Assembly (NCBI GenBank): GCA_965649765.1
Contig: OZ287749.1
Location: 18,352,001-18,416,000, forward strand
Source of the DNA: Bispira polyomma
Lineage: Eukaryota
Direction of reading: 5' to 3'
Length of the DNA stretch: 64,000 nucleotides
The position numbers and the translations under genes are program-made. The notes under the pieces are model-generated. The model was not told where the DNA came from. It ran no database searches and saw only the letters and a list, made by a program, of their open reading frames with translations. How positions within the stretch are numbered: the stretch's first letter is position 1; the number at the start of each line of letters is the position of its first letter. Positions 2,523 to 64,000 of this stretch are shown here, piece after piece.

Positions 2523-2908
2523 TCTCAACCACCTGCCTTCCCCTGGATATCCTGTAGTTACAAATTCTCTGGTGATGGGTGAGTGCCTTCCTTGAATAGG
2601 GTTTCATCATCCATGTTTTCAGGGCGAAGGTGTCGTGCCTCAGCATAAAGTAATCCACGTCATGTCATGTCAAACAGTGCTGCAGGTCTGGGCAGCCCAA
2701 TGGATCCATCTTCTATCTGCTGCTTGAGCTCTAAATGGTGGAAAATTCAGGCGTCTGAACAGAAACCACTGCAGCCAATGTCCACCCAAATAAATCTGTA
2801 GTCCACATCAACCAGGGCAAACAGGACAATGAAGTGGAAGCCTTTATAGTTGTAAAATTCACTCTCAGCCTTGAGAGGCGTCTTGATAGCCACATGCTTC
2901 CCGTCAAT
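2330..2908 (-). mobile_element. PIF/Harbinger transposase (DDE nuclease) relic, C-terminal two-thirds, frameshifted
   Basis: IDGKHVAIK..YNYKGFHFIVLFALVDVDYRFIWVDIG..SDA and KPY..NYRISRGRQVVEIAFGILASRFR..CVILHN are typical Harbinger nuclease motifs. Confidence 0.9.
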
Positions 2909-3683
2909 TGTTACATATAAGGACATTGTGGTATATGAAAGCACTCTCCTAGAGTGATCTATTTATAGATTTGGGGAAACCCCTGAGCTTCTAGAAGCTG
3001 GTTCTATTTTGTTTCTGTTATTATTGAAGTTGTCTTAATTTGTTTACATTTTTAATCTGGAACGTTCTAGCAATTGTTTACATATTCTAGCAAACTTCTC
3101 TAGCAGTGATATATATAAGGGTTGACAGCCTGGCCACAGAGTAGAGTTGATTGAGTTGGTGTGCTATATAAACTGCTATACTGTGAAACATTTTATTTCT
3201 TTTCCTGTGGATATAAACTGATTATTATATACATTTTGTGGTGAACTCATCAGAGTGACTTGGATATAAAGTTGTGGATCTACCAGAAATTGGATTTGCT
3301 GCATATCGGATATTTTTGCATCCTGGACTGGATAGCTTAGTTGTGCAAACTCTCTGGATATATACATTTTGTGTTCATGGACACCAAACAGATAACAGGA
3401 TACAGGCATTGTGTGGACACCGAGCGGATCTCAAGACGGATTGCTGGATACAGTGGACAAACTTGTTTAATTGTTATTAATGTGGACAAGACTGTGGTCA
3501 GGTCAGATTGGTTTCATTATTGTATTATTGTATGGACTATTAAGAGTATCTCAGTTGACTGTAATTCTGTAATTGTTATTTTATTTGTTAAATAAATTTG
3601 TTAAGTGAAACTTTTTGTCTTTTCCTGTTACAATCTCAAAGCAACCGGTAATTGCTACCGAGCTTGCTCCCGTGACCGTAACA
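2909..3683 (+). mobile_element. Probable solo LTR
   Basis: Termini TGTTAC...GTAACA, TATA box (TATATAAGGG ~3112), AATAAA ~3591; interrupts the Harbinger ORF; target-site duplication imperfect (caat/caaa). Confidence 0.65.
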
Positions 3684-3857
3684 CAAACTTACCCTCACAG
3701 TAATTTCAAACCATATTGTGATGTATTGTTTATTCACACCAGAAATATATCTAACACCTTACTACACAGTTAAGTTCCTAACTAAATTTCCTGTTACAAC
3801 CTAAAAGCAACCTCTAATTGCTACGCCGCTTGCTCCCATGCAAACAATTGCCACAAG

Positions 3858-4678
3858 TCGCTTTTGGAATTTTGGCCAGCCGGTTCCGCCTATTACTAAT
3901 GACAATGCAACAACACCCCCTAGTGGCCTCAAATCTGACATTGTCATGTGTGATATTACATAATCTACAGAGTCGCCAGTGTTGAAACTCAGCACTAGGG
4001 CACCCCAATCTACAAGATGATCCACTTGAACCTGAGGAGCAGTTGGTAGGAGGACGTGTTAATGGACTATTATATAAATGAGGGAGCAGTCCCGTGGCAA
4101 ATGATAGAGTTTAACCTGAGCCTAACCACTTGAGCCAGATGAGAAGCCAACCCAGAGATGTTGCTGTAGCTGTAAATTTAAAAGGTCTTTTTCAGGACCA
4201 CCCAAATATTTCAAGAACAATGTTTGAGCTGTTTGTTAAAAAGAACGTATTCACACCAAGTTCTGCCAGATTTGACAAACAGTTTGGTCAGGGCGCAATA
4301 CGTCAGATCGAGAGTCACATAAGTTGCCGGCCCGGCCTGTCCTATTCAAAAGGGGCGGATCTCAATAGGATAGCGTGGGCCAGTAATTAAACATGCTGGG
4401 AGTGCTCCGAGACCTATCCGACAGAACATATTGGCAATAGGATCGAACATATTTACCAATACGATTTTAAGGTCTGGGACCACAAGTCGGGAACCATTTA
4501 CAAAATATCAAACATGTATCAAAATGGAAGGACAAGTTACAGTATCTTCTGCTACCTCCTGGTTCCGCCTACCATACCACAAATATACACATAGAGATTT
4601 TATGGTGTCGGACATTATCCATATAAAATTTTCAAAACAGTGTATGAAGGGATTGCTAACTTGTAGAGTTTACTGGAC
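3858..4678. repeat. Inner right arm of inverted duplication (includes 3' part of the Harbinger relic, here on +)
   Basis: Reverse complement of 1702-2522. Confidence 0.97.
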
Positions 4679-4888
4679 GTACTAGTGAAAGTTGTTCTCA
4701 AAAAAGATAAAATATTCTGTTAGATTAAATGTCATGATATTATGATTATTAGGATTATATATATTCATTCTACAAAATCTAACATGACAGCACCCAATCC
4801 AGTGAATCCTTGAATTGTTTCAAAGATTATGTAAGGATCAGAGTATCACTATATTAGGTGTATGCGGTTTATCTATTACCAATACCCA

Positions 4889-6591
4889 ACCTTATATTAC
4901 CTATATTATCTCCTTTTTACACTGTGTTTACAGAAGCCTCACTCCCCACCAGGCTAGGAGTTCACTCAGTCTGTGTGTGATGAGTGCTGTGTTAGCTATG
5001 TTGTGTAAGGATCAGGGTATCACTGTATTGGGGTGTGTGGTATACATTCCTACTGTCAACACTGTCATAAAACCACAAAATTCCCCACTACCAGCACAGC
5101 ATTTTTAGGACTATGTGTAAGTTTTTAAATATAGTATCTACTACTAATAACACTGTCATAAAACCACAAAATTTGTCACCACTAGGACAGCCTGTACGGA
5201 GTTATGTCTAAGTATTTAAATATATAGAGTACAACAAAAAAATTAGTAGAACCTCTATTATCCAAATACTCTCTCAAATTGATATTTTCCTATTGTTTTG
5301 CTAGTTAAATGCCTTTTCTATTTTATGAACCTTCTGCTATCTGTGAACAAATCTTGGTGTTCTAATAATAGAGATTCTATTGTAACTGTGCTATTAGCTG
5401 TATGTAAGTGCTAAGCTGGGATTACATTCATGAAGTTATGAATGTTCTATTTACCTCCGCCAAAGAAGTTAGTTTAGTTTTCGCCAGGTTCCATAGTGGT
5501 TTGTTTCTTTACATCAACCAATTTACGTAAACTTGGGATGGGGAATGGCGAAAAGAAGAAACCTGTAGATTTATTTAGGTTTTACTTTGCTTTAACGGCT
5601 TAGGTCATATCACGACAGCCAGAACCAATGTTGAAAGAAATTAGTGCTAAAGCACTGTAAACCCCCAACTTATGGCAAGTACCTGACAAACTTTGACACA
5701 CAAAAGAACAAACAGGATTCAAATCAACATTGGTAAGAGGCCAGTGATTGTTAAGCAGATACTTCTAAGCAGTAGGCCACTGTGGCCCCTCTTTTAAATT
5801 TTGGAGTGGATCTAGGTAGAAGGGGGATCCAATATCTAATTTCATTGCTGTGGCCCCTTGTCCGAGGATTGCATTCTATTAAGTGTTCTTCTAGTCAGCT
5901 GTTTTAACTACTCTCAGTTAGCACTTATTTTCTTTTGCTGGTATGAGTTTAAAAGTTAATTATAACAAGTGTTACTTTAGCTCCCCCCCTTTTTTTAATT
6001 TGGATATTTAACGTCCACTCTAGTACCTGTTTAGATTATATCGGGACGGGTAGTTTGAAACGCTGGAGGAAACACTGCATACAGTTGATCAAGGTTTTGC
6101 ACTGAAACCAGCGGCCCACAGTAAGGAACTACCACTTTTCCCACATAGGCATCAAGGGGATTCAAAATCACGCTGCCCAGAGGTGAGAGACCAGTGATTG
6201 CGAAACACAATGCTTGCTAACCACTAGGCCACCGCAGCCCCGCCCCCCCTAGAAGTTTACCACATTATGTATGAGCTAAAAGGCCCAGGCCCAGATAAAC
6301 ACAGAAACTAGATGCCTAGCAGTATTGATGTTTTTATCACTAATCTTATTATGCATATGTGGATTATTTCCTTCACATCTACACAGTAAATGAGTTAATA
6401 CCTGACTGCACTAATATTTGTTTATCCTTTTAAGACCAGCCTCACCCTCAGTTTAATGACTGTTACTTATTTTTGTCTGACTCTATATAAGTTAATAACT
6501 GATTGTAATAATAATTGTTTTACCCATTCAGCCTGTTCCTCAGTGTAAGAGTCACCTGGTTACAAGGGTCACTGCCAGTATTTCAAAGAGA
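4889..6591. repeat. Outer right arm of inverted duplication
   Basis: Reverse complement of 1-1703. Confidence 0.97.
4934..5116 (+). pseudogene. TMTC1-like exon (transmembrane region; MLCKDQGITVLG), in-frame TAG at 5106-5108
   Basis: tttacag acceptor; motif matches TMTC MLxKEQGITVLG; GTAAGT donor at 5117. Confidence 0.8.
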
Positions 6592-8916: not shown

Positions 8917-9720
8917 TTGATAATAATTGATAATTGAAATATTTATGTAGCGCCAATTTGATGAGAACATTCTCTAAGGCGCTGATATCCAAAAAGGGAA
9001 ACTCAAGGGACAAGCAAAGGTCATTACCAAAAAGCATCCAAAAAGAGAAGGGTGACAAAGCAGGGGTGTAGGCAAGTCTGAAAAGGTAATTTTTCAGATG
9101 GCTTCTGAAACCAGTGATTTTATTCTGCGATCTGACAGTATGTGGGAGTTTGTTTCATTCCACAGGGTATTTATACCGTACAGCAAGGAGTTGCAATAGT
9201 CTAGCTGGCTGCTCTCCATTGCGTTAGCCACTTGGACTGCAACTTCAATACTGAGGTACCTGCGTATTCTGCGCAGATTGCATAGATGGTAGCAGCAGGC
9301 CTGGCAGACACTGGCTACATGATTTCTGAAAGAGTTATCTTGGTCGAAAATAACACCAAGGTTCTTGACTTTACTTGATGGTGATATATTGTTGTTTAAT
9401 ACACTGATTGGAAAGAATGGTTTGCAGCTGTCTCGAGTGGAGTTTTCGCCTATAGTAATGAATTCGGTTTTATCTGGGTCGAGGGTTGTGGGTTGGCTTG
9501 ACGCTTTCCATGCATGTTTGCACAGCCTCGAGGCATTTTGCCAACTCTGATATGCTTGAGTAAAAGTTTCTAGCATCTATCCCTAAGTATATTTGTGTGT
9601 CATCAGCATACAGATGGTGGGTGACATTAAACTGAGAAATTATTTTACTGAGGGAATGGTGTACATGGTGAAAAGTAAAGGGCCTAATAGAGAACCTTGT
9701 GGTAGTGAGAAAGCTTCTGA
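8917..9720 (-). mobile_element. L2/CR1-group LINE ORF2 fragment with 3' end
   Basis: HLYADDTQIY RT motif, KTEF, VKNLGVIFD, LDYCNSLL motifs. Confidence 0.9.
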
Positions 9721-10906
9721 GAAATTGTCGCCAATTTTGATTTAAATGAAGAAATAACCTTATTAAACAACTGCTCTGGAATGAAGAGCATTGACTGCAT
9801 AAAGCCATACTAAATAAGAAATAAAAAACATCTTTATCCCACAATGGATACTCTCTAGTTAATTATGTTTTGCATACTGTTGTTTCTATTTTGATTACAG
9901 CAAGTATCTAAGTTTTGCCACCTCTTTATATGATGTTAGAAAGTCTTCAAAAGAAAAATTGATGACTTTTTAAAATAGTTAATATTTTGTGACTTTAAGT
10001 TGGTCTTTTGTCACCCTAGAAATAGCCTACAAAGTCTGTAAGCCAACTTCTGAGGTTCATTATTAATGTTGTCTCATTAGCATTGTTTTTCTTGTTTTGC
10101 AATTAGTACCCTGGCTTTATACTAAAATTTATTTTTATGTAATCACTAAATTTTGTGATATCAGTATGGTATAAGATCCTCCTATCTGCTGGAACTCGTA
10201 CATCAATGAAATAATCCTAATTCCATAGTTCAACCAAAAAGGTAAAAGTATTGGATTTCGCATTGTGGCAAACATTTTCAGTAGTAAACGTTTTATTTGT
10301 CTGGAACTATTATAGTAAACTTTGGCCCTGGAATACTTACTTTTCGATATTTCTTTATATTATCGCCAAAAAATGTTAAGGTAATATATGAAATAAGCAA
10401 AGTATCATTTTGGGAAAAATACACAAGGCTATGTAGACCCTATGGCTATATAGACCCCATATCGACCCCAATCCTTTTTCGCTCTTTTATATTGGTCACA
10501 AGACAAGAAGGTTTTCTGTGTTAAATCCTTGCTTCATCAGTTCCCAATCTAGCTTAACCTGCATTGCAATATTTTATCAATTTGATTCCAAGCCAGTGTC
10601 TTTTTACCTCCACATTTCAGGAATATGAAACGCAAGCTGGTAGCAGTGCTAAGATCTATTAACAACAGAAATTAGAATGGTAACAGAAAAACCCCCAAAA
10701 GGGGTTAGTGAGCAGGGGGGAGGGAACTTTTGCAGTGGCGTTAAAAAAGGAAAGTCTTTACAGTAAAATAACACTTATTGGCCTGCACCGTTCATTTTGT
10801 CTACCATGAGAATTAATACAGTTACAGTTCTTTATACTTATATAATCATGCATGAAACAGTAAAAGTCCATTACATAGATAAAAAATCCCCCAAAATCTG
10901 TTTTAA

Positions 10907-24413: not shown

Positions 24414-27400
24414 CAGTGACCTTTTAAGGACCAGTCGCTTCAAGTTTTAAGACATACATAACAACAATATACTTTTTGGTATTTTATTCCATACATTGAG
24501 CATTACCACTTTGATTTGATATTGTGTGACATAAATAACAAGCCATGATATAGTAGTGATATTATTTAGTGCGTACTAAAGAATAATACTAATACACCTC
24601 ATAAGGGAACAACACTTGAGTAAATGCTATAGCACAATATAGAATCCTTCCCAGTTGGTGCCTCTCATTGAACTGCGATGAGGCACGCGTACTGCTAAAG
24701 TAGTTCAGTGTGATGTCCGTGACATTTTGATCACTGAACATGTTGGCCATTATGTCCTCGCAAACCTACTACAGTGACCTTTCAAAGGCCAGTGACCTTA
24801 AAGTTTTAAAACATAGATAACAACAACATACTTTTTGTTATTTTATTCCATTTCATTTATTGAATTCAGTATCACCAATTTTATTTGACATTGTGTGACA
24901 TAAATAACAAGCCATAATATAGTAGTGATATTATTTAGTGCATACTAAAAAATAATACTAATACATCCCAAGCCAAACAAGAATTTAAGAAAGAATTAGT
25001 ATATATTTGGATATATTTGAAAGTGTGGGGAACAAGGCTGAGGTTTTGCCCAGCTTAAAGATTGGACCAGATAGCGTCTGAAGTCCAAGTGCCATGAGCT
25101 TGAAGGCAATGAAGGGGGACGTTGTTTTGGAACAAGAGTGAGGCTCCTGACCGTCTGAATTCATGGAACCCAAGTGTGGAATAGTTGAGGCCAAGAATGG
25201 CCAAAATATTTTTTAATACATGTCTAACTTTTACATCTGTTAAGATTTGATATTGGTTGCCATAAGGCACTACAAACAAGGGGGAGGCCAGTGGCATGGC
25301 AAACTCACTATACATGTCAGCCACAGTCTGAACTGGACATAGAGGTGAACCAGGTAATAGGGGAAGTTGCAACTGGACATTGGTTTGTTGACTTTGCATG
25401 GCTTTAGCCCATTTAACACTGATAACTAGTCCAGGATCCTGGAACTTAACATCACACCTTAGAAGCAACCACCCGCTATCATACATATACACAGAATGTG
25501 ACACTAAGTTGCTGATAAAAAATAAGCCAAAGAAGGTTATCAAAAATATTGCCTTAAATACACGTTGCTCAATGTAGGCCAAAATGACACTAAGTGAGTA
25601 GTGTGGGTGAGAAACTGAGTGGGTGACACAAAATTTAAGAAAATCAGACAATGTACGACTATAAAGGGCCCTGGTCTTGGGCTGGAAGGCGAATTTGGCT
25701 GTAACTTGAGTTGTCGTACTCTGTGTAAAACTAAAACATACATATACATAACTAACATTGAACTTTTGTCTCAGATAAGGGCGGTTGCATGACAAGACAG
25801 CTGACTGAACTGTATATGTGGAAGAAAGTCTTTTTCCTTGAGTCTAAATACCGAGATAAGAGGTCTGCCCCCACATTGTCTATTCCCAACACATGTCTGA
25901 CCTGCAGTGTGATATCATGAGTAGCCGTAAGGAGCCATTTGTGTCTAGCAACTTGAAGGAGATAGGGGTCTTTCTTCCTATTGAAATTTAAAATATTTAC
26001 CACTGTGTTGTTATCACAATACAGGATTTCATTGGAGTTGATAAATGCAGGCAACCATGTGGTAAGAGCAGTGTATACATTAAGCATTTCAAAATGAACA
26101 ATAATAGCAGGGTGATCAGCTAACTGATCTAACTCTAAATGATACCCAACCTGTTTATAAACTTCCCCTAGACCAGATAACTTGGCATCTACATAGACAA
26201 CTTCATTGTGGATAACAGGTTTGTCAAAAAAGACTACACTATTAAACTGGCTAAAAATGTCACAAATCACTTTATGTCTGCAATGAATGATTTAGGTAGC
26301 TTAAGCCTACTAGTATCAGGACAAGAATGCAGTACTTGCAAAATGCGGTTAACAAAAAGTCTAGCTGGTTTAATACATTTACTAATGTACAATAGTTTTC
26401 CTACAATACTTTGCACTTTGTTCTTGGTGTCATACGTCTTAAGACTCCATTCCATACAAAGGTTAGTATTTAAGTAAGTTTATCAGGAGGAAGACTATGG
26501 GTACCTGCTGTTACATCAATTTGAGAGCCCAAACATGTTATAGCTTGCCTGTAGATTCCAATTTGGACGGACTTTCTGGAAGGCCAAGCTCCTTGACCAA
26601 TTTGAGTGGGAAATTAAAGGCTGAAGTGGCAGCTTTTAACGAGCTGTGAATACCAATTATGTCATCAATATATTTGTAAACCACATGACCTAGCTAAGCC
26701 GTTATATACCTAATACTGTCTGTAATTCGCTGGCAATAATGGCTTCCATGCCTAAAGCCAAAGGGTACCGCTTCATCAACATAGTAAGCATTCTGCCAAT
26801 ATGAACCTAATAAATGGAGATCATGAGGGTCTACTCTCAAATTATGAAATGCGCGCTTCGATAGCATTATAATTACATTCAGTTGTGATGTAATGTGTAA
26901 TGTGGTCAGGGTACTCAATTACTGAAGGGTTGTTATATTGACAGGTAACATAATGTCCATTATAATAACTAGGCAAATCGGTGTCATGCACCATGTCACT
27001 ACTGGTGTGACTGATTTGACAAGATTCCTGAATGACTTTACACACACTGAAAACATTGACTCTGTAATTGTAATACAAGGTCTCTGAGGGTCATAAGCAG
27101 AATATAAAACCACCATATAGGAAACATAACTGAGAAAAATTGACAAGTGTACACAGCCTTTGTTACCAACCCACAACAGGCTCTGCCCTCCTTACAATAC
27201 ACAGAGGTTACACAGCATGCAACACAACTATACACTAACCAGAATCCCATCAGGATATGTAAATTTAACAACTCAGTAATAATAGAGCAGAGAGCTTGGA
27301 CCCTGCCAACAAGTTCTCGTGTACTAACATAAAGAAGAGGGGAAACTGAATTACCAACCCTAGGTATGACTGTATTAAGTCTGGTAGAACCATGTTTGTG

Positions 27401-44543: not shown

Positions 44544-44801
44544 GGGGCCGCGGTGGCCTAGTGGTTAGCAAGCATTGCGCTTTACAATCACTGGTCTCTC
44601 ACTTCTGGGCGGCGTGAGTTCGAATCCTGTCGATGCCTATGTGGGAAAGGTGGTAGTTCCTTACTGTGGGCTGCTGGTTTCTCTGCAGAACCTTGACCGA
44701 CTGTATGCAGTGTTTCCTCCAGCGTTTCCAACTACCCGTCCTAATATAACCTACTAAAAGGTACTAGAGTGGACGTTAAATATCCAAATTCAAATTCAAA
44801 C
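44544..44801 (+). mobile_element. Intact tRNA-derived SINE with 12-bp target-site duplication
   Basis: A-box TGGCCTAGTGG, B-box GAGTTCGAATCC, (CAAATT)n tail, TSD GTCTCTCTTAAT at 44532-44543 and 44802-44813. Confidence 0.93.
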
Positions 44802-46449: not shown

Positions 46450-48300
46450 TCAATATCCAAGATTTCATTCTTAAATTCTTCATTCTTCCGTTTGTGGTTA
46501 TTTCATATGTCAGGGGTCACATCTGTTGTATGGCGTACTGAGTACTGAAGTCTGCTATGTGTTACTCTTTTCAATAATTTCATTGAATAAGTATCTGACA
46601 TGCTATGTTTGTCCTTACACACAACTAAAAATATGACCTCATTGTTTGGTGTTCTGTGATTGCTACTATAAATATCGGCTGTGTAGTATTCAACATTATG
46701 GCAATTTGCAATATCAGGTTAAGACTTTTTATCATATCTTGTTTCGCCCTGGGTGTGATTTGTTATCTTGCACAGCCTGTTGTGCACTATTGGTAATAAT
46801 GTTAATTATACCAGTTGGCTCTGATCCAACTCTTACAATGTCACTTGTATTATGATCAACATTACTTTGTGGAATAATACCCACTTTCCTATTAAACACA
46901 TTATTTTTTACACCATTGTCTACTGCACATGCTGTAAAATCACTATAAAATTTTTCAGTCTCTATAGTTCTGTCGTTGTGGCTATAATTCATAACCTAAA
47001 CACTTGGTTTATAACTCATAATATTATTTAAATTCTCATGTCTGTCCCCTATAATTTTACATTTATTATTGGAACGTTCCAGTATATTATTAATGTAACA
47101 ATTGACACTACTACCTCTTTGTACTAATGGGTGATGTCTGGTTGTGCAGTCAGTGATCTCTGATGTTGGTCTGTTGTCCTATTGAGTAGGTGTGGCTGTA
47201 GATGTTGGCTAGCAATGTAATTGAAAACACTTTGCCTCTGCATGAGGGTTAGCTCGCCCCTTCAGCTTGAAGCAATGCGCGTATATATGTCTAAATGACA
47301 TTGTTGACGTCTCGTGGTCTGATTTGTGTGAACATTGATAACGCTAAAAGTGCCTACATGGCATTTTCTTCTTCCTGTTGATGTTATCTGATGATGTTGT
47401 GTGACTAGACGCTAAGTTTAAAATGAGGGCCTGGGAGTATGATAATCTATTCATGGTCCATCGGGTTTCGTCTGTCCATGATAACCGACCCTCCTCAATA
47501 TCGTGCATATTACTTGCGTATGCCCCGCGTGCGATGTTCCATGAGATGTTGGCCGCATCCTTCATGGTCGCTGCTAGTCGATGTAGCATAGGATTCAAGA
47601 TGGAGGTGTTCTTTACCTCTAATGCATTCTGTATCTGACCTGCCGCGAATTGGGCCACAGATAAGTCATCATATGTGACCCTCTATTTCCCGACTTCTGC
47701 TAAGCAGGCTTCATTTGGCCAGCATAGCATGGGGTCTGCTATACACACCTCTGACATGTTAAATCTGCCTCATTTTTTTTTAAAAGGTAGCTTACCCTGT
47801 AAGTTTGTGTCTGTTGCCCATGACTTATACTGTGCTAACCTTTGGTTCACTTCCGCTTGAGTGTCGCAGGACCTCCATGGGGGGATGAATTGCGTCTCTC
47901 ATCCGTGATGTTGTTCGGTCAACTACGTGCGACTCCCTTGTAAGCACGTTTCCTGCTGCCCCCTAGTGATAATCCATCTGCCTGGCATCTGCCACTCTGT
48001 TCTGGCATTGGGAGTAGCCCGTGTCCCATCTGGGCTCTGGAGTGAAACGGGTTCTTGTAGTCACTCAGTGGTCTGTCATAGTATTACTGGTGCTGGAACT
48101 GGTTTTAGTAAACTTTGGTTATCATATTGAGTATGTGCTTTGTCTTTCGCTTTGAAGCTAGAGACGTCCCTTTCTAACTCATTGACAGTTTTAAGTAAGG
48201 CTTCCATCATATTATTTTGTCTCTAGAAAAGTGACTTATACACGTCATTGTTACTCACATTGAATTCTATGCTCTGGGAATCTGATTCCATACTTGTGTC
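46450..48300 (-). mobile_element. YR-retrotransposon 5' relic (gag plus start of pol)
   Basis: WPNE..RVTYDDLSVAQF..SWNIARGAYA..IEEGRLSW..PCRH..H..HIYAHC aligns by eye with gag at 59921. Confidence 0.8.
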
Positions 48301-48369: not shown

Positions 48370-49430
48370 TACAACTTTAGTTAAAATGCCTTCGCTTTCC
48401 AAGATGGCTGCTGTTTTTATTTACTTTTTCTGATGCTAGCTCTTTGCTTGCCAGCTTAAGAATGTGGTTACAATGGTAAAGGCGGGAAATCTCTCCCTGT
48501 ACACAAGTTTCTAATTTGGTGCATTGAAAACAATTGGATTGGATGGCATTCTGTACACAAATGGTTGCCACAACTATACTGTAAAGGTGTGTATTTGTGC
48601 CCCGACTGAAATGTCATGCTTTGTGATGCAGTGACTGTTACCAACGTAACTGTACCAGATGGTGTGTCTCTGTATCCTGTGCCCCACCCTCCTCCCCATC
48701 TCCTGGAATACGTCAGGGGGCATCCCAAGGAAATTGTGGTACGACTGGAGAACTTGCAGCTTCAGGCGTGGCATGAGTGATGTGAAGTGTCCATGTTCTG
48801 CTATTTCCCTGAGCAATGGCTTGATCTAGAACCTTTGCCTTGCACTTCATCTTCTGGCCACCTGAGCCCAAAGCTGTACATTCCGTACATCTCTTTGCCT
48901 TGCTTATCGTCGTATTGTGCCTTCGATGCCCATAATAACCATCAGTGGTGCTTGCATGTAGGTAATTACAGCCCTAAGTCCATTTACTAGATTTATTAAT
49001 CTTTGTAGAATCATGTTGATCACTTGCTTACTGAATTAAAACTGTCTGGATTCAAGTTTGAACCCTAGTTTAAATAGCATTTGATGGAAATGGTACCCAC
49101 TGATTGTTATTACCAAGATTTCGATCTGGATCAGCTGTTTCATCGGCTGATTTATCTTAGTGTCGAATGACTGGATTGTAACGCCCTTACAACCTATGTT
49201 TTTGATTGTAAGCAGTTTCAACAACTTATCTTTAACAATTGGCGGAGGCTGGGAGCCCAAAAATGTGATTGTGAATACAAATCAGGCCGATTCATCATAA
49301 TTTTAACAAATTATCGGGGAAGTTGTACGACTTATTTTACAGGTTGTGTTGACACATATTTTCCCGGCCTTTTCTTAAAACATTGTGGGAAAACGCCAAG
49401 GATTGCTCATGATTGCCTAATTGGGGCCTC
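48370..49430 (-). mobile_element. PIF/Harbinger transposase N-terminal relic with probable 5' terminus (GGCCCCAATT)
   Basis: HGHFTSLMP.L..SYHNFLGMPPDVFQEM..RVGHRIQ matches Harbinger N-terminal F..M...F.EL...V pattern. Confidence 0.7.
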
Positions 49431-52898: not shown

Positions 52899-55800
52899 TG
52901 CTAAGTAAACCCAATAGGGTTAGTAAGTTAAGTGCTGACCCTAAAATTAAAATTATTCTGGTTAAGTGACCTTAGTTGTTGATTGATTAGCAGGTGGCCT
53001 ATATTCTCTGACAATTCCTGCCAAAAGCCATAAAACCTCACTTTAAATTAAGAATTTGGAATGGCAGAACGCCATTTTAAAAACTTTTAAATCTTTTTAA
53101 TTTGTTTTATATATTTACATTACACTTTTATTCTATGTCTTTTTATGGTTTTATATATAACCGAGTATTCATATGTGTTGTAGTCAAGGAATAAATGCTA
53201 ACTGGACTGAAAAGTGAAGCTTGTAGGAACCAGACTGGATTTATTTGTCAAACAGCTTTGACATATGCCAATTTTGCTCTTTTTCTAAGACTACGGTTGA
53301 TGGTTGTGCTTATTTTTATTTGAAATTTACATAATTTATTTCTAAACAAACTACAACCTCAATCCTAATAGGGGATCAATCAAAATAGGGGACAAATACG
53401 ATCTACAACTTCAGGTAAAAAGAAAACATAGGGAAGTGGTCGCTAAAGCAGAAAGGCAATCCCTTACTCAAAAAATGGAACAAACAAAACAAAAAAAATT
53501 TGGTTTCATTCCCCTAGGTAATTTGAAACTACCAGAGGTGGTAAAGGTCTGTCCACACTTAGGCGACCCTCTTGAAATTAGTGAAAAAGGAAAAATGCCC
53601 TATTTTCTTAATTTTAATATTTTAATAGAACCTGTTCCTTCAAAAATAAAGGGCAAAATCACAGCTCGGCTATTAAGTTTCAGGAAGATGTAAAAGCATA
53701 TCTCAAAGCAGAAAAAGAATTCGGGGCAATTCCTTTTGAGGAACCTCCTTTATCCAAATTGCATGTTTCCTCGTTTATGACATTACCTAAACCAGATGCT
53801 AAGCATAGGAGAGTTATTATTGATTGGAGTTGCCCACAAGGGCGTGCAGTTAACTTGGCTATAGACAGAGACCAGTACCTTGACACCCCTTCATACTTAA
53901 GCTTCCCACGGTTGATGACATCACTCGAAATGTGGTCAAATTAGGCAAGGGACCAATATTTTATAAATTACACATTAGTCGAGCTTTTAGGCACATGAAA
54001 ATTGATCCGGCCGACTATGATCTGCTAGGTTTACAACTGAATTACTACTATATTGACACGTGCCTGCCATTTGGCTATCGCCAGGTTAACGCTATCTTTC
54101 AAAGACTGAGTGACGCCATTTGGTTTATCATGATGTCACAGGGTCACAAGGTTATAAACTATGTCGATGACGTCATCAGGTATGGCCTTTCCTCTAAAAT
54201 TTTTGATTCATTTGAAAAATTGAAAGACATATTTGGTAATTAGGTTTTGGTATCAGTCAACAGTGGTTACTCCTAGTACCAAGGTACTACGTCTACTTGT
54301 CTTAGTCAATACTGAAGACTTTACAGTCTCTATTCCGGATAATAAACTGAAACAAATAAGCTATGTCAGAACTGGGTGAATAAGAAAAGCTGCATTAAAA
54401 GACGGTTACATTCGTTATTTGGTTTATTATTATATATTTCCAAATCTGTCAAAACTTCCTGAGCTTATTTTAATAGAATGTTAGACACCCTGAGGGGCTC
54501 TCAAAATGCTCATGAAATTAAGCTAGACATTGCATTTCACCAGTATCTGAACTGGTTTAATACCTTCATGACAACTTTTAATGGCATAGCCCTTTTTACC
54601 TTAGACTAGTAACAGATCAGATACACTTAGATGGATGTTTGCAAGGATTAGGTGCTTGCTGCAACAACCAAATTTATACTAAAGAAATTCCTGTCGGTTA
54701 CAGAGATTATACTATCCACCTTAAAATGATAAATATTTTAGCAGCAATCAGGGTCTAGAAAAATCAGTGGGCTGGACGAAAGTTACTTATACACTTTGAC
54801 AACCAAGCTGTTGTTTTTATTTTAAACTCAGAAAAAATATATTATCTCAATCTGGCAGCAATGGCCAAAAACATTTTTATGGAAGCTGCAAAAAAGATAT
54901 CGAACTGAGAACGGTACATATTCTGGGCAAACAAAATATCACAGCGGATTTACTCTGTATCTCTAGGTGGACTATTACCACTGACAATAATAAAAAAAAT
55001 GAGTGAGTTGGTTAAAAATCCCACCTGGTTACTGGTCCATGGTGACGTTTTAGAAATGTATTGGTCTATTTAGCTCTAACATTTTTCAGGCTCTACAACC
55101 TGGGTGTCTAAGCTACCAGACAGAGCAGTCAATAGAGCACAACAGGTTTTTCGCCCTTCTACACGAAAAGCATACACAGCCATGTTCAGAATATTCTTGG
55201 CATATTGCTGCTTTGCTTACATTTCGAGGTACAACATCACACCTATAGTAATTCTAGGCTTTCTGGAAGTTTTGGTAGTTAACAATACATCTTATACCTC
55301 AGTCGCAAATTACCTTTCGGCAATAAAGGTAATTGTCACTGTATGGGCTACAAGTAACTGCCTTCGACGATCAAAGAATAAATTATTTTCCAAAAGCCCT
55401 CATCTTACATAAGCCCTTTAGGGCAAAAATAAATGGAATTATTGATATTGACTTACTGCAAAATATAGCTCTCATCTGTGATTCTATGTACATGGGTCAA
55501 ATTTACAAGGTTGCTTACCTTCTAGCCTTCTTTTTTCTGCGTATTTTCAATCTAGTACCACACTCTCAGAGTACATACTCACCTTTTGCAGCAGCTAGGC
55601 AGGGCTGACATCATTTTCGATCCTCCAGGTGCTCACATAATAATAAAATGGACAAAACCCTAGAGCCAACAAATACCATTAAAGTTATTACAATTCCTGC
55701 ACTACAAAATAAGATTATTTGCCCAGGCACAGCCCTTAAGGTACTTCAGCAGAAATCTCAAAGATTTTAAGTAGGTTAAACAAGACCCAGGCAAATATTA

Positions 55801-56000
55801 TCTTTCACACTTTCGGTTGATCTGGAGCGACATTAGCCTTCAATGCACATGTCCCTCTGCAGGACACTCAGAGTCAGGGCATCTGGTCCTCTGAATGTGT
55901 GTAAAGATACATCACCCAAGACCATTTGGCCTCTGACAAGGTCACGCCGGCTCTCCAACCCCTTCTCAACCCTCTTCCTAATTCCTAGTTGGGCCTTGGT
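52899..56000 (+). mobile_element. Degenerate YR retrotransposon, sister of 59400 copy; gag deleted
   Basis: 5' 470 bp align to 59400-59875; RT YVDD, RNase H and YR remnants with many stops and frameshifts. Confidence 0.93.
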
Positions 56001-59000: not shown

Positions 59001-59920
59001 TTCTAACAAAGATCGCCTAAAATAATGACAATAAAGTCAAAGCTTTAAAGAATGAGTTCATGTAACTGCATGTGCTTTCACTCTGAGTTCACATGGTACT
59101 TTTTGATAATAGTGTGGCTATTGAGTTACATATATATAGTAATAGTCAGTAACCTAAGTGGATACTTCTGGGTTGCTACAGGCATAATCTGATAGAACAA
59201 AAGCAGAATAAAGAGTAACAACAAAAAAGGCGAAACATCTAGCTTCAATTACAAATAAAAAGGTTTTGATGAATTTTTTATATAATATTTTCAAGATGTT
59301 TAAAAATATGGTTTTAAAACATTAAATCATTGTGCCTAGTAAAGGCCCCTTCCCACATAGGCAAAACTGGCTTGGTGACAAGCAGCAACATAAAATGTTT
59401 GCTAGGTAAACCCAACGGGGTTAGTAAGTTCAGTGCTGACCATAAATTACATTGTTAAAACTATTCTGGTTATGCTGACCTTTACTAGTGATTGGCCAGC
59501 AGTTGGCCTACTTTCTCTCACATTTGCCGCCAATTTCTACCCAACCTCACTTTAATTTAAGACTTTGAAAGGGCGGAACGCCATCTTAAAAACTTTCAAA
59601 TATTTTTACATTTGTTTTTATATTTTACATAACTCTTTATTTGTGTGTCTTTTTATGCATCTTTACATAACTGAGTCTTAATATATGTTGTAGTAAGAGG
59701 ATGAGAGCTTACTGGACTGGAAATTAAAGATTGCTGGCACCTGACTGGAGTTATTGTCAAATTGCTTTGACATATGCGAATTTTGCTCTTTCTTTAGGGC
59801 TATAGTCGAGGGATGTGTTTACTTTGATTCGAAATTTAATATAATTTATTTACAAATTCAAAACAACCTCAACTTAAGATACGCATATACCAAAGCATTT
59901 GTGTATATTTTACTTGCAGA

Positions 59921-60982
59921 ATGGCACCTCGGGTGAATCATGATTGTAGGGCGTGCAAAAGTAGTCACAAAAAGCCCATTAATGACGATTGTCCATTCAT
60001 GAAAAAATCTGACACTAATGAACAGAATGACACTACCAGTGCGGCTATTAACTTACGTATTTTAAAAGAATTAAAAGGACTAAGTGGCCGCATGTCGGCA
60101 ATGGAAAAACGTGTTGATCAATCTGAGTGTAGAAACAATCTTCCTAGTGCTCCAGCACATACTGTGGCCGCTGCTCCTGCAGAATTCTCGACCCCAGCCA
60201 CGTTTATGCAGCCAACAGTCCAAGGTACGACTCCGGCGGCGATGGCTCAACCAGTATTCCAGCCAGTTCCAGAGACAGACGATACGCTGGTCCCCACGCT
60301 GACTACCCTAAGGACGTCAGACTACTTGCAGCAGGCGGTAGATGCTAGACTGCGCGACCTGGCTGGACTCTCTGACAAAGGTAACTGCAAATCTCAACGA
60401 GGTGGGGCTGAAACTGTATGGGTAAAACGACAGGTGGCATGGCCACAAAATCATATTCTGGGTGGCACAACTAAATCTCGAACAACTTATGACAGCCTTT
60501 CGATGGCCCAATGGATCTCGGGTTTTTGCTTTACCGTTAGAGATGAGAATAATGTAGAAACAAAAAATGCAATGTTAGATTATGTTCAAGATCTAATGGA
60601 AGATTGTCGCGACTTTTCGTGGGCAGCTGCGAAAGGCAGCCACGCGGTGTTACTCTGTCGTATGGAGGAAGGTAAAGTTTCGTGGGATGAAACGGCTAAA
60701 ATTGATCATATTAGATGTGCTCATGCACAAAAAGTGGTCAACACTTCAGGTCACTCGAATTATCAGAGTACTAGGCAAAAAGCTAATGAAAAGGGAATTC
60801 CCTGTAAATACTTTCAAAAAGGATCCTGTCCCCACAAGACTGAACATGAAACCAAAGGTCACACGTATTTGCACATCTGTGCTACTTGCCTGACTTTTGG
60901 GAAAAGCTTCTCACACCCATCTAGAGACTGTCATAGGAACAAAACTAGTAAATTTGGTGAAAGTAGTGCAAAAAACGAGTAG
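59921..60982 (+). CDS. gag-like ORF1, 353 aa, intact
   Basis: N-terminal CxxC..H..C motif, heptad-like helix, C-terminal CKYFQ..C..H..HIC..C..H..C zinc finger. Confidence 0.9.
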   Translation: MAPRVNHDCRACKSSHKKPINDDCPFMKKSDTNEQNDTTSAAINLRILKELKGLSGRMSAMEKRVDQSECRNNLPSAPAHTVAAAPAEFSTPATFMQPTVQGTTPAAMAQPVFQPVPETDDTLVPTLTTLRTSDYLQQAVDARLRDLAGLSDKGNCKSQRGGAETVWVKRQVAWPQNHILGGTTKSRTTYDSLSMAQWISGFCFTVRDENNVETKNAMLDYVQDLMEDCRDFSWAAAKGSHAVLLCRMEEGKVSWDETAKIDHIRCAHAQKVVNTSGHSNYQSTRQKANEKGIPCKYFQKGSCPHKTEHETKGHTYLHICATCLTFGKSFSHPSRDCHRNKTSKFGESSAKNE

Positions 60983-61005
60983 GGCACTGCAGTACAGCAG
61001 TGCCC
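60970..61005 (+). promoter_or_regulatory. Putative -1 ribosomal frameshift signal (A_AAA_AAC, 5-nt spacer, 9-bp hairpin)
   Basis: Heptamer in gag frame; -1 frame is open into ORF 61000-62085; stem GGGCACTGC/GCAGTGCCC. Confidence 0.8.
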
Positions 61006-63377
61006 AAATATTCTGCTCATATCTCCAGTACACATGTAAATGATCACAAGCAGTATTGTGCTGGTAGAACTGTATATAATGTAAATGTTGCCAGATGGTG
61101 TAGCGACAATTGGAGAGCTGACTGGGCCAAATTTAGCAAGAAATCATATGCTCAGGTAGTAAAAGGAAATAAAAACAATATTCAAAACAGGGTATTAAGC
61201 TTAGGTCAAGGTCAGCCCTCCAAAGGTCGCTCAAATGTACAGAAAAAGTTGTTTAAAAATGTAAAAAGAAAAAATGTAAACAATTGCAAGCAGTGGACAA
61301 AGGTTCCACAAAAGGAGAACCCAAAGTCATTTGTAAAACGTCAAATACCCCATTCAAATGTAGAGAATAAGGGTCAAACTGACACCTCTAGTAAAAACAA
61401 GAATGATGTCGACAAGGTAATCTCTAACCAATCAGTGAGGTGTGAGGTCGTGAACAACAGTGGTATTAAGTGTCCGAATAGATTTACACCCTTGCTAACA
61501 TGTACTGAGACTGAAGCAATTAGTCACATCAGATTCTCAAGTTCAACAGATGATACCCCAAACAATCAGACTGGGGACAAGTATGAACAAGAGTTACAAG
61601 TTAAAAGAAAACATAGGGATGTGGTAGCTAAAGCGGAACACAACCCTTTGTTTCATAAATGGAACAAGCAAAATAAAGAGAAATTTGGCTTCATTCCACT
61701 GGGAAATTTAAAACTCCCAAATGAGGTTAAGGCAAGTTCACACTCGGGTGATCCTCTTGAGTTGCACAAGTTGGTGAGAAAACAAAAATGTCCAAATTTC
61801 TTAGGAGCTCAAATAACAGTGGTTTCTCAGCTGCATGTAGAAGAATGGAAAAAACTATTGGGTGACTATTGGGATACCCAACTGATCCAATTGCTCAAAT
61901 TTGGATTTCCCTTAGATTTTAATAGAAATTGTCCCTTAGAAAACAAAGGTGACAACCATAGCTCAGCTATCCAGTTTCAAGAAGACGTTAAAGCTTATCT
62001 CAAGGAGGAAAAAGATTTTGGAGCAATAATTGGGCCATTGAAAGAACCCCCCCTTTATCCGAACTACATGTTTCACCATTCATGACTCGGCCTAAACCGG
62101 ATGCTAAGCATAGAAGAGTTATTATTGACCTAAGTTGCCCACAGGGTCGTGCTATAAATTCAGCCATAGATAGAGACCAATATCTTGACACTCCCTTTAT
62201 ACTTACATTACCCACAGTGGATGATATCACACGTAATGTAATCAAATTAGGCAGAGGTACACTATTGTACAAGCTAGATATCAGTCGCGCCTTTAGACAA
62301 AAATTGATCCAGCCGACTACGACCTGCTAGGCTTGAGATTAAATGAGTACTATATCGATACGTGTCTGCTCTTTGGCTATCGCCACGGCAGCACCATTTT
62401 TCAACGCCTCAGCGACGCTATTCGGTTTATCATAACGTCACAAGGTTATGACGTCATCAATTATATTGATGACGTCATAGGATATGGAATTTTGACAAAC
62501 ATTTTCGAAGCTTTTGAGAAATTGAAAGAAATTTTTCATAAATTAGGTTTTACTCTCAGTAACAAAAAAGTGGTTGCTCCTAGTACCAAAGTATTACGCT
62601 TAGGCGTCCTCATCAATACTGAAGATTTTACCGTATCTATCCCAGATAGTAAACTGAATGAGATAAAACATATATGTCACAGTTGGACAACTAAGAAAAC
62701 ATGCACCAAACGACAGCTCCAGTCATTACTGGGTTCATTGTTATACATCTCAAAATGTGTCAAAACGTCACAAGCTTACCTCAATAGAATGTTGGACACC
62801 CTCAGAGGTGCTCAAAACATTAAGTTAGATATAAATTTTCACCAGGATCTCAACTGGTTTAATACCTTTCTTACAACATTCAATGGTATGGCCTTCTTTG
62901 ACCACAGACCAGTAACAGGCCAGGTACATCTGGATGCATGTTTGCAGGGACTGGGTGCATGTTGTAACAATCAAATTTTTACAAAAGAAATTCCTCTTGG
63001 CTATAGAGACTACACTATCGTCCACCTGGAGATGATAAATATTTTAGTATCTATTAGGCTTTGGAAAAGTAAATGGTCGGGGAAAAAATTACTTATACAC
63101 TGTGATAACCAAGCAGTTGTGTCTATTCTTGTCTATCTCAGGAAAGACCTATGATCTTACTCTCGCAGCAATGACTAGAAATATTTTCATGGAAGCTGCA
63201 AAGGCAGATATAGAAATCAGAATGGTGCATATCCTGGGTAAAAGAAACAATATAGCTGATTTACTTTCTAGATGGGCCATTACCACTGACAGGGATAGGA
63301 AATTACAGGAAATACTTCAGAATCCAACATGGTTACAGGTCCATGATGACCTTTTAGAGATAGATTGGTCTATATAG
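60970..63377 (+). pseudogene. pol (RT + RNase H) broken by at least three frameshifts
   Basis: ORF pieces 61000-62085, 62082-62330, 62333-63154, 63102-63377 concatenate to a DIRS-type RT/RNase H. Confidence 0.92.
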
Positions 63378-63392
63378 TTCTAACAATTTCAG

Positions 63393-64000
63393 CATCTCCT
63401 ACCTGGGTCGCAAAATTGGCAGACAGAGCAGTCACTAGAGCGCATCAGGCCTTTCGTCCTTCCACACAAAAGTCCTACACAGCAATGTTTAGGGTATTTT
63501 TAGCATATTGCTGCTTTGCAACTATCTCTATATATAATATCGTTCCTTCAGTAATTCTAGCCTTTCTGGAGGTCCTAGTAGTTAACAATACCTCTCATAC
63601 CTCTGTGGCAAACTATCTCTCAGCGATAAAAGCTAATATGTCACTATATGGGCTTCCAGTCACTGCTTTTGCGGATCAAAGAATTAAGTATTTTCAAATT
63701 CTCCACTATTCCAAGTGAAAAACGACACTCGATGGCTAACATTAACAGACAGCAAAATTTGCAGAAATCTCAAAGATATTTTAGTTAGACTAAACAAAGA
63801 TCAAGCAAATATAACATTTCACACATTCCGTCGCTCTGGGGCGACCTTAGCATTTAATGCTCATGTTCCATTACAGGACATACAAAGTCAGGGCATCTGG
63901 TCCTCTGATTGTGTGTGGCGATATATCACTCAGGACCACTCGGCCTCTGACCAGGTTGCCCTTGCCCTACAATCTCTCATCAACCCACTACCTACTTCCT
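63393..64000 (+). pseudogene. Tyrosine recombinase with internal deletion near 63695
   Basis: AFRPSTQKSY..NYLSAIK N-domain; catalytic HTFRR..W..Y; central part present only in the sister copy. Confidence 0.9.

Follow-up and report, generated by a model that had tools for sequence, protein, structure and literature searches.

A probable conserved 5′ splice site in the gag gene of Ngaro-type retrotransposons, through which the tyrosine recombinase would be fused behind the N-terminal half of Gag

The minus-strand site with its exon end at position 47796 of a 64,000-nt stretch of the Bispira polyomma genome (hereafter the window) is, with high probability, a conserved 5′ splice site by which the Ngaro-type elements of this genome would make their tyrosine recombinase (YR) fused behind the N-terminal half of Gag, as judged from comparison of genomic sequences. 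In the proposed scheme, the unspliced RNA would be translated into Gag and would also serve as genome, while Gag-Pol would be obtained through stop-codon readthrough (clades A and D, defined below) or −1 frameshifting (clades B and C). Gag(N)-YR, a protein of about 130–270 Gag residues and about 325 YR residues, would come from a spliced RNA lacking the second half of gag and the whole of pol, and Gag would supply its start codon.

Results

A phase-1 donor in a decayed gag remnant

The window comes from a genome of 1.035 Gb and contains several YR retrotransposon remnants. On its minus strand, nucleotides 47802–47790 read TTA CAG GGT AAG C, with the TTA at 47802–47800, the last exon base at 47796 and the GT at 47795–47794, and the cut falls in phase 1 of the gag frame. 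This reading confirmed the earlier note, which had placed a donor TTA CAG G|GT AAG C of phase 1 just before a KKK*GRF..WPN..YDDLS block; the block, KKK*GRF together with WPN/YDDLS, begins seven codons downstream of the donor. The copy carrying the site is a gag-only remnant running from about 48490 to about 47150 with no RT or YR behind gag, and the start of this gag is probably eroded. The copy is dead and its acceptor is lost; the donor it carries goes back to an active ancestor, and the selection on the donor acted in such active ancestors. Because GGTAAG occurs 19 times in the window, counting the two strands together, the hexamer at 47796 is by itself not beyond chance, and the proposal that selection rather than chance is at work here draws its support from the family comparison given below.

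The earlier note had also regarded 47796 as homologous to the clade-B donor at 60380 (AAA G|GT AAC TGC, likewise phase 1), in spite of only distant similarity between the two gags. The distance was borne out, with 25% protein and 38% DNA identity over the aligned core. Homology stood in part: the two sites share linker and phase, with the KS motif on one side of both glycines and a conserved helix (V..RL) on the other, but MAFFT assigns the glycines to different columns (56 and 65), and the 60380 family has 8 residues fewer in the linker than the 47796 family. The two donors are likely the same site displaced by indels, with homology of the linker and not residue for residue. That they arose separately in the same linker, with the mechanism itself real for the clade, is unlikely: the two glycines do align only with gaps, their spacing differing by 4 codons on each side, but the same linker and phase are found in all four clades, clades A, C and D put the donor 14 residues past the helix Leu, and homologues elsewhere form a continuum from 3 to 8 residues before KS.

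Table 1. Features of the Ngaro-type elements in the window (positions are those of the window).
Feature	Position	Strand	Basis or remark
Probable phase-1 5′ splice site in gag, GTAAGC after exon end 47796	47790..47800	−	Sequence and family codon tests; homologous donor used in L221
Decayed clade-A Ngaro-type gag	47179..48291	−	9 internal stops; CAA-TAG-G end as in all clade-A relatives
Remnant resembling the 5′ end region of clade-A relatives (73%)	48400..48489	−	Sequence comparison
Phase-1 acceptor (predicted) of second clade-B remnant, gag lost	55075..55089	+	RT/RH 53621–55070, YR to 55973
A1 terminal repeat of clade-B element	59400..59609	+	Self-comparison of L081; B1, A2 and B2 just past window end
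Clade-B gag ORF	59921..60982	+	Sequence
Clade-B phase-1 donor (predicted), exon end 60380	60375..60386	+	Sequence and codon tests
pol (RT/RNase H, without methyltransferase), frameshifted in this copy	60967..63377	+	Inside predicted intron 60381–63392
AAAAAAC slippery-type heptamer and hairpin, gag/pol junction	60970..61005	+	Predicted −1 frameshift signal; folding z = −5.0
Phase-1 3′ splice site (predicted)	63378..63392	+	Sequence; AG ends 15 nt past pol stop
YR exon (predicted), deletion and frameshift in this copy	63393..64000	+	Sequence; continues beyond window end

Several further repeats were seen in the window. In the second clade-B remnant (53346–55973, plus strand), the 5′ end region is joined directly to late pol, so that gag is deleted and the acceptor kept. 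Decayed RT/RNase H/YR sequence of clade C lies at 25010–26855 (minus strand); in its intact relatives the donor reads GTATGT and the pol frame spans about 1190 residues, including internal tandem repeats. An interspersed repeat of about 255 bp at 44544–44800 recurs at 80–97% identity in many of the fetched loci and is SINE-like in size. ORF fragments at 9094–9862 (minus strand) presumably resemble the C-terminus of a LINE-type reverse transcriptase, going by their motifs and with no Pfam support.

Fixation of the donor codon in the nucleotide sequence

The family was sampled as 120 loci of 8–9 kb around gag or RT matches plus the window copy, the loci being the top-scoring of more than 9000 candidates and not a random draw. 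After leaving out 14 sequences with a partial or missing gag match and 2 with visible frameshifts, 105 gag rows were aligned. They form four clades, A (47796 type), B (60380 type), C and D, with 36–52% DNA identity between clades, and one representative was taken for each of 32 clusters (under 85% identity).

The donor GT is kept in 103 of the 105 gag rows, across the four clades. Among the 32 representatives the donor codon is GGT in 29 and GTT, GAT and AGT in one each, and the remaining members of the GTT and GAT clusters have GGT. All 29 Gly-bearing representatives thus use GGT, compared with a T third base in 97 of 266 cases at 12 other conserved Gly columns, and the next codon starts with A in 32/32 although its residue is K, N, T or M. 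The earlier note had asked for such a codon alignment of many gags and had held that free variation of the Gly codon would count against it; variation of this kind was looked for and not found.

When third-position changes were mapped on the gag tree, none was counted at the donor Gly in clade A or in clade B. This was the sole zero-change column among 34 conserved fourfold columns in clade A (others 2–11 changes) and among 29 in clade B (others 4–13). The Lys after the donor is encoded by AAG in 57/58 clade-A rows, while Lys elsewhere is split into 80 AAA and 78 AAG. Moreover, shifts of −3 to +1 codons in the spacing to the KS motif have left the donor in place. The fixation of this codon at the nucleotide level holds in all four clades.

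Junctions between gag and pol

The gag frame ends in CAA/AAA-TAG in all 10 clade-A and 3 clade-D clusters, with pol following in the same frame in intact copies, and AAAAAA(C/T) is found at the gag end in all 18 clade-B clusters and in the clade-C cluster, where pol is in the −1 frame. A strong hairpin follows AAAAAAC in the three clade-B copies that were folded; behind the clade-A TAG, folding was no better than that of shuffled sequences. Read by retroviral rules, CAA/AAA-TAG would be a readthrough context and AAAAAAC a −1 frameshift signal. The gag/pol junction appears to switch within one superfamily, as illustrated within the window by the −1 context at 60970–61005 (plus strand) and the amber stop at 47184–47178 (minus strand). 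A shared acceptor for pol was considered and provisionally set aside, since in the copies examined pol is joined to gag by an in-frame TAG or a −1 overlap.

A phase-matched acceptor ahead of the YR frame

For 97 of 121 sequences it was possible to place the end of pol as well as the beginning of YR. No ATG is conserved in the YR frame; a few copies contain one in frame close to where YR starts. Of 96 copies with a YAG past the pol stop, 83 have the first one in phase 1, and one further copy has no YAG there; the other 13 have another phase and appear to be mostly those with visible frameshifts. When each cluster was represented by the copy with the longest open YR frame, 27 of 28 clusters had the acceptor in phase 1, its distance from the pol stop taking 12 different values between 5 and 30 nt, and the one exception, L100, has a one-base lesion downstream. 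The GT...AG ends are thus conserved and matched in phase, as in a U2-type spliceosomal intron.

A second intron inside YR was rejected, because the 771-nt deletion common to L102, L105, L135 and L140 has no GT-AG ends; these four likely represent a non-autonomous sublineage. In L137 (oriented 2727–6092), pol and YR form a single frame of 1121 residues, probably through a copy-specific lesion.

The YR could instead be made from unspliced RNA through programmed frameshifting or re-initiation at the pol/YR junction, the splice being minor or regulatory. Poulter and Butler (2015), as quoted in PMC13003380, proposed that a programmed frameshift within a −1 overlap probably gives rise to YR, and in 15 of 28 clusters the YR frame does lie at −1 to pol and overlaps it briefly. 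However, YR follows the pol stop in frame and without overlap in 9/28 and in the +1 frame in 4/28, and this variation argues against the frameshift proposed in the 2015 review. A slippery heptamer inside the overlap was found in only 2/28 clusters, compared with the constant acceptor phase in 27/28, and the frameshift or readthrough context is clear at the gag/pol junction of the same elements, showing that such signals can be recognised where they exist. If the splice were purely regulatory, there would be no need for its phase to be kept. Translation of YR from unspliced RNA is accordingly quite improbable. According to the part of PMC3783388 that was available, the Ngaro YR frame may equal the RT-RH frame or be shifted from it, and the same relation is seen here.

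A genomic copy that lacks the predicted intron

Precise removal of the stretch between donor and acceptor was found in one genomic copy, L221 (G000:C1, about 95308297–95310504), a clade-A element noticed in a YR search through its unusually long frame of 426 residues. Its gag stops exactly at the donor and its YR begins at the acceptor. Relative to the clade-A copy L101, with which it shares 97.5% and 98.7% identity on the two sides of the junction, L221 is without the 3401 nt running from GTAAGC to TTTCAG, and the frame is open through the junction, with one stop further upstream in gag. The start of L221 coincides with the A-repeat boundary and its end with the B|A boundary, and poly(A) is absent, which is consistent with reverse transcription of a spliced RNA followed by insertion through the element's own machinery. 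Between the helix and the end of the KS motif, the L101 and 47796 donor regions can be aligned with no gap; L221 shows the homologous donor in use in the same clade as 47796.

The joined form was seen once, in 1 of 150 scored matches and 1 of the 40 YR flanks fetched. For clade B, no long open frame was found among 150 + 150 overlapping YR matches, nor a spliced copy in 20 flanks. Among the contigs listed for runs X1–X3, comparison with the L221 junction gave only loose ends of the unspliced type and no bridging piece, so that L221 stands on the assembly alone. Likewise, no donor-to-acceptor joint was found in the X1 and X3 contigs placed on L066 (X1–X3 are of unrecorded kind and give even cover over the element). 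L221, L125, L136, L120 and L108 all end exactly at the B|A boundary (A-ORFs-B), without an A2-spacer-B2 tail.

Might GGT-A be fixed for some other reason, such as a G-K protein motif, an RNA structure or a packaging signal, with L221 a chance deletion at its 2-nt microhomology? G-K is common among the protein homologues, internal deletions are frequent in these elements, and AG is common to both ends of the stretch removed in L221. But a motif at the protein level has no hold on a synonymous base, and the A stays while the residue encoded by that next codon may be K, N, T or M. The other deletions inspected (the one shared by L102, L105, L135 and L140, and those of L111, L119 and L073) miss the donor and acceptor sites, and a random deletion hitting both predicted ends would be expected about once in a million per deletion, by a rough estimate of 3 placements in about 1000 × 3000. 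Such a combination is highly improbable, and a splice site under selection is the reading retained here.

Position of the donor in a model of Gag

In an AlphaFold model of a clade-B Gag (mean pLDDT 75, pTM 0.46), a long helix (residues 39–71) is followed by a disordered stretch and a helix pair ending at 180 (last helix 161–180), and the donor Gly 181 is placed at the helix end, just ahead of the C-terminal folded part. Since the donor comes directly after the helix pair in this model, the splice would keep whole N-terminal modules and swap the rest for YR. The predicted N-terminal Cys/His module, the long helix and the helix pair would then likely carry the recombinase into the Gag particle. 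Searching the model against the PDB gave no match at E ≤ 0.001.

Class of the elements and their relatives

Ngaro-like elements (order DIRS) are described, in the parts of the sources available, as carrying gag, RT/RNase H and YR within split direct repeats A1-[ORFs]-B1-A2-B2 and as being without a methyltransferase (PMC8547959, PMC9210276, PMC4157794, PMC3783388). Split direct repeats of this arrangement were found in clade A (L071, L101, L103, L104, L112, L113 and L117), and split direct repeats also in clades B (L081, L097 and L165), C (L147) and D (L160); they were absent from several other copies examined and from the 47796 copy. The ORF order gag-like, RT/RNase H, YR was observed, with RVT_1 above the cut-off and the YR Pfam matches below it. 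The pol frame ends about 35–40 residues past the RNase H motif, and no methyltransferase match was obtained in any of the three pol proteins scanned. The elements thus have the ORF order, split direct repeats and missing methyltransferase in common with Ngaro-like elements, and can be classed as such by matching these features to published descriptions.

DIRS1-like and PAT-like elements also combine YR with RT/RNase H; the available parts of the literature give them a methyltransferase domain, and DIRS1 inverted repeats with an ICR (PMC3266345, PMC6681497, PMC7192593). Here, DIRS1-like inverted terminal repeats with an ICR and a methyltransferase domain, and a PAT-like methyltransferase domain, were looked for and not found.

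Gag homologues from other assemblies number 86, and the KS..WP block could be located in 60 of them; in all 60, a Gly followed by K, M, R or T stands 3–8 residues ahead of the block, a placement that fits a shared donor. A scan for relatives in viral and metagenome contigs found none. No fused Gag-YR protein was present among the best 150 library matches, all of which start at query residue 47 or later, or among longer proteins or near-length matches in the libraries; this absence is weak evidence because the libraries look like intron-blind gene calls.

Discussion

In retroviruses and gypsy elements the env mRNAs are spliced. Splicing yields Gag alone in copia and Env in retroviruses, where the integrase lies inside Pol. 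Spliced subgenomic RNAs of Ty1/copia elements appear in the accessible parts of PMC5580714 and PMC3735527. The Ngaro-type elements would have in common with Ty1/copia, retroviruses and gypsy an intron that is kept in the genomic RNA and removed from a fraction of it for one protein. In contrast to copia and retroviruses, the integrating enzyme here would itself be what splicing yields, joined to half of Gag and set apart from Pol.

For Ngaro-like elements in print, so far as the sources at hand go, YR is ascribed to probable ribosomal frameshifting, whereas here a conserved spliceosomal intron would join Gag(N) to YR. Our literature search, with the founding papers and Repbase outside its scope, returned no report of a splice or intron in Ngaro-like elements in the portions of text it covered.

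We lean slightly towards a broader reading, in which Gag(N)-YR splicing would be the ancestral and general route of animal Ngaro elements, the Gag-YR integrase being loaded via the N-terminal helices of Gag, and three decoding routes (plain translation, readthrough or frameshift, and splicing) serving three proteins.

The translation of the start-less Ngaro YR has only been guessed at in print, and a spliced Gag(N)-YR would replace that guess. If this is true, annotated Ngaro YR proteins are without their true N-terminus, and the exact donor-acceptor junction can be sought in RNA-seq data already available for any animal that carries such elements. In the Ngaros of Cafeteria, loss of ORF1 goes with changed integration sites, according to the part of PMC8547959 that was available; a Gag part on the recombinase itself would offer a reason for that change.
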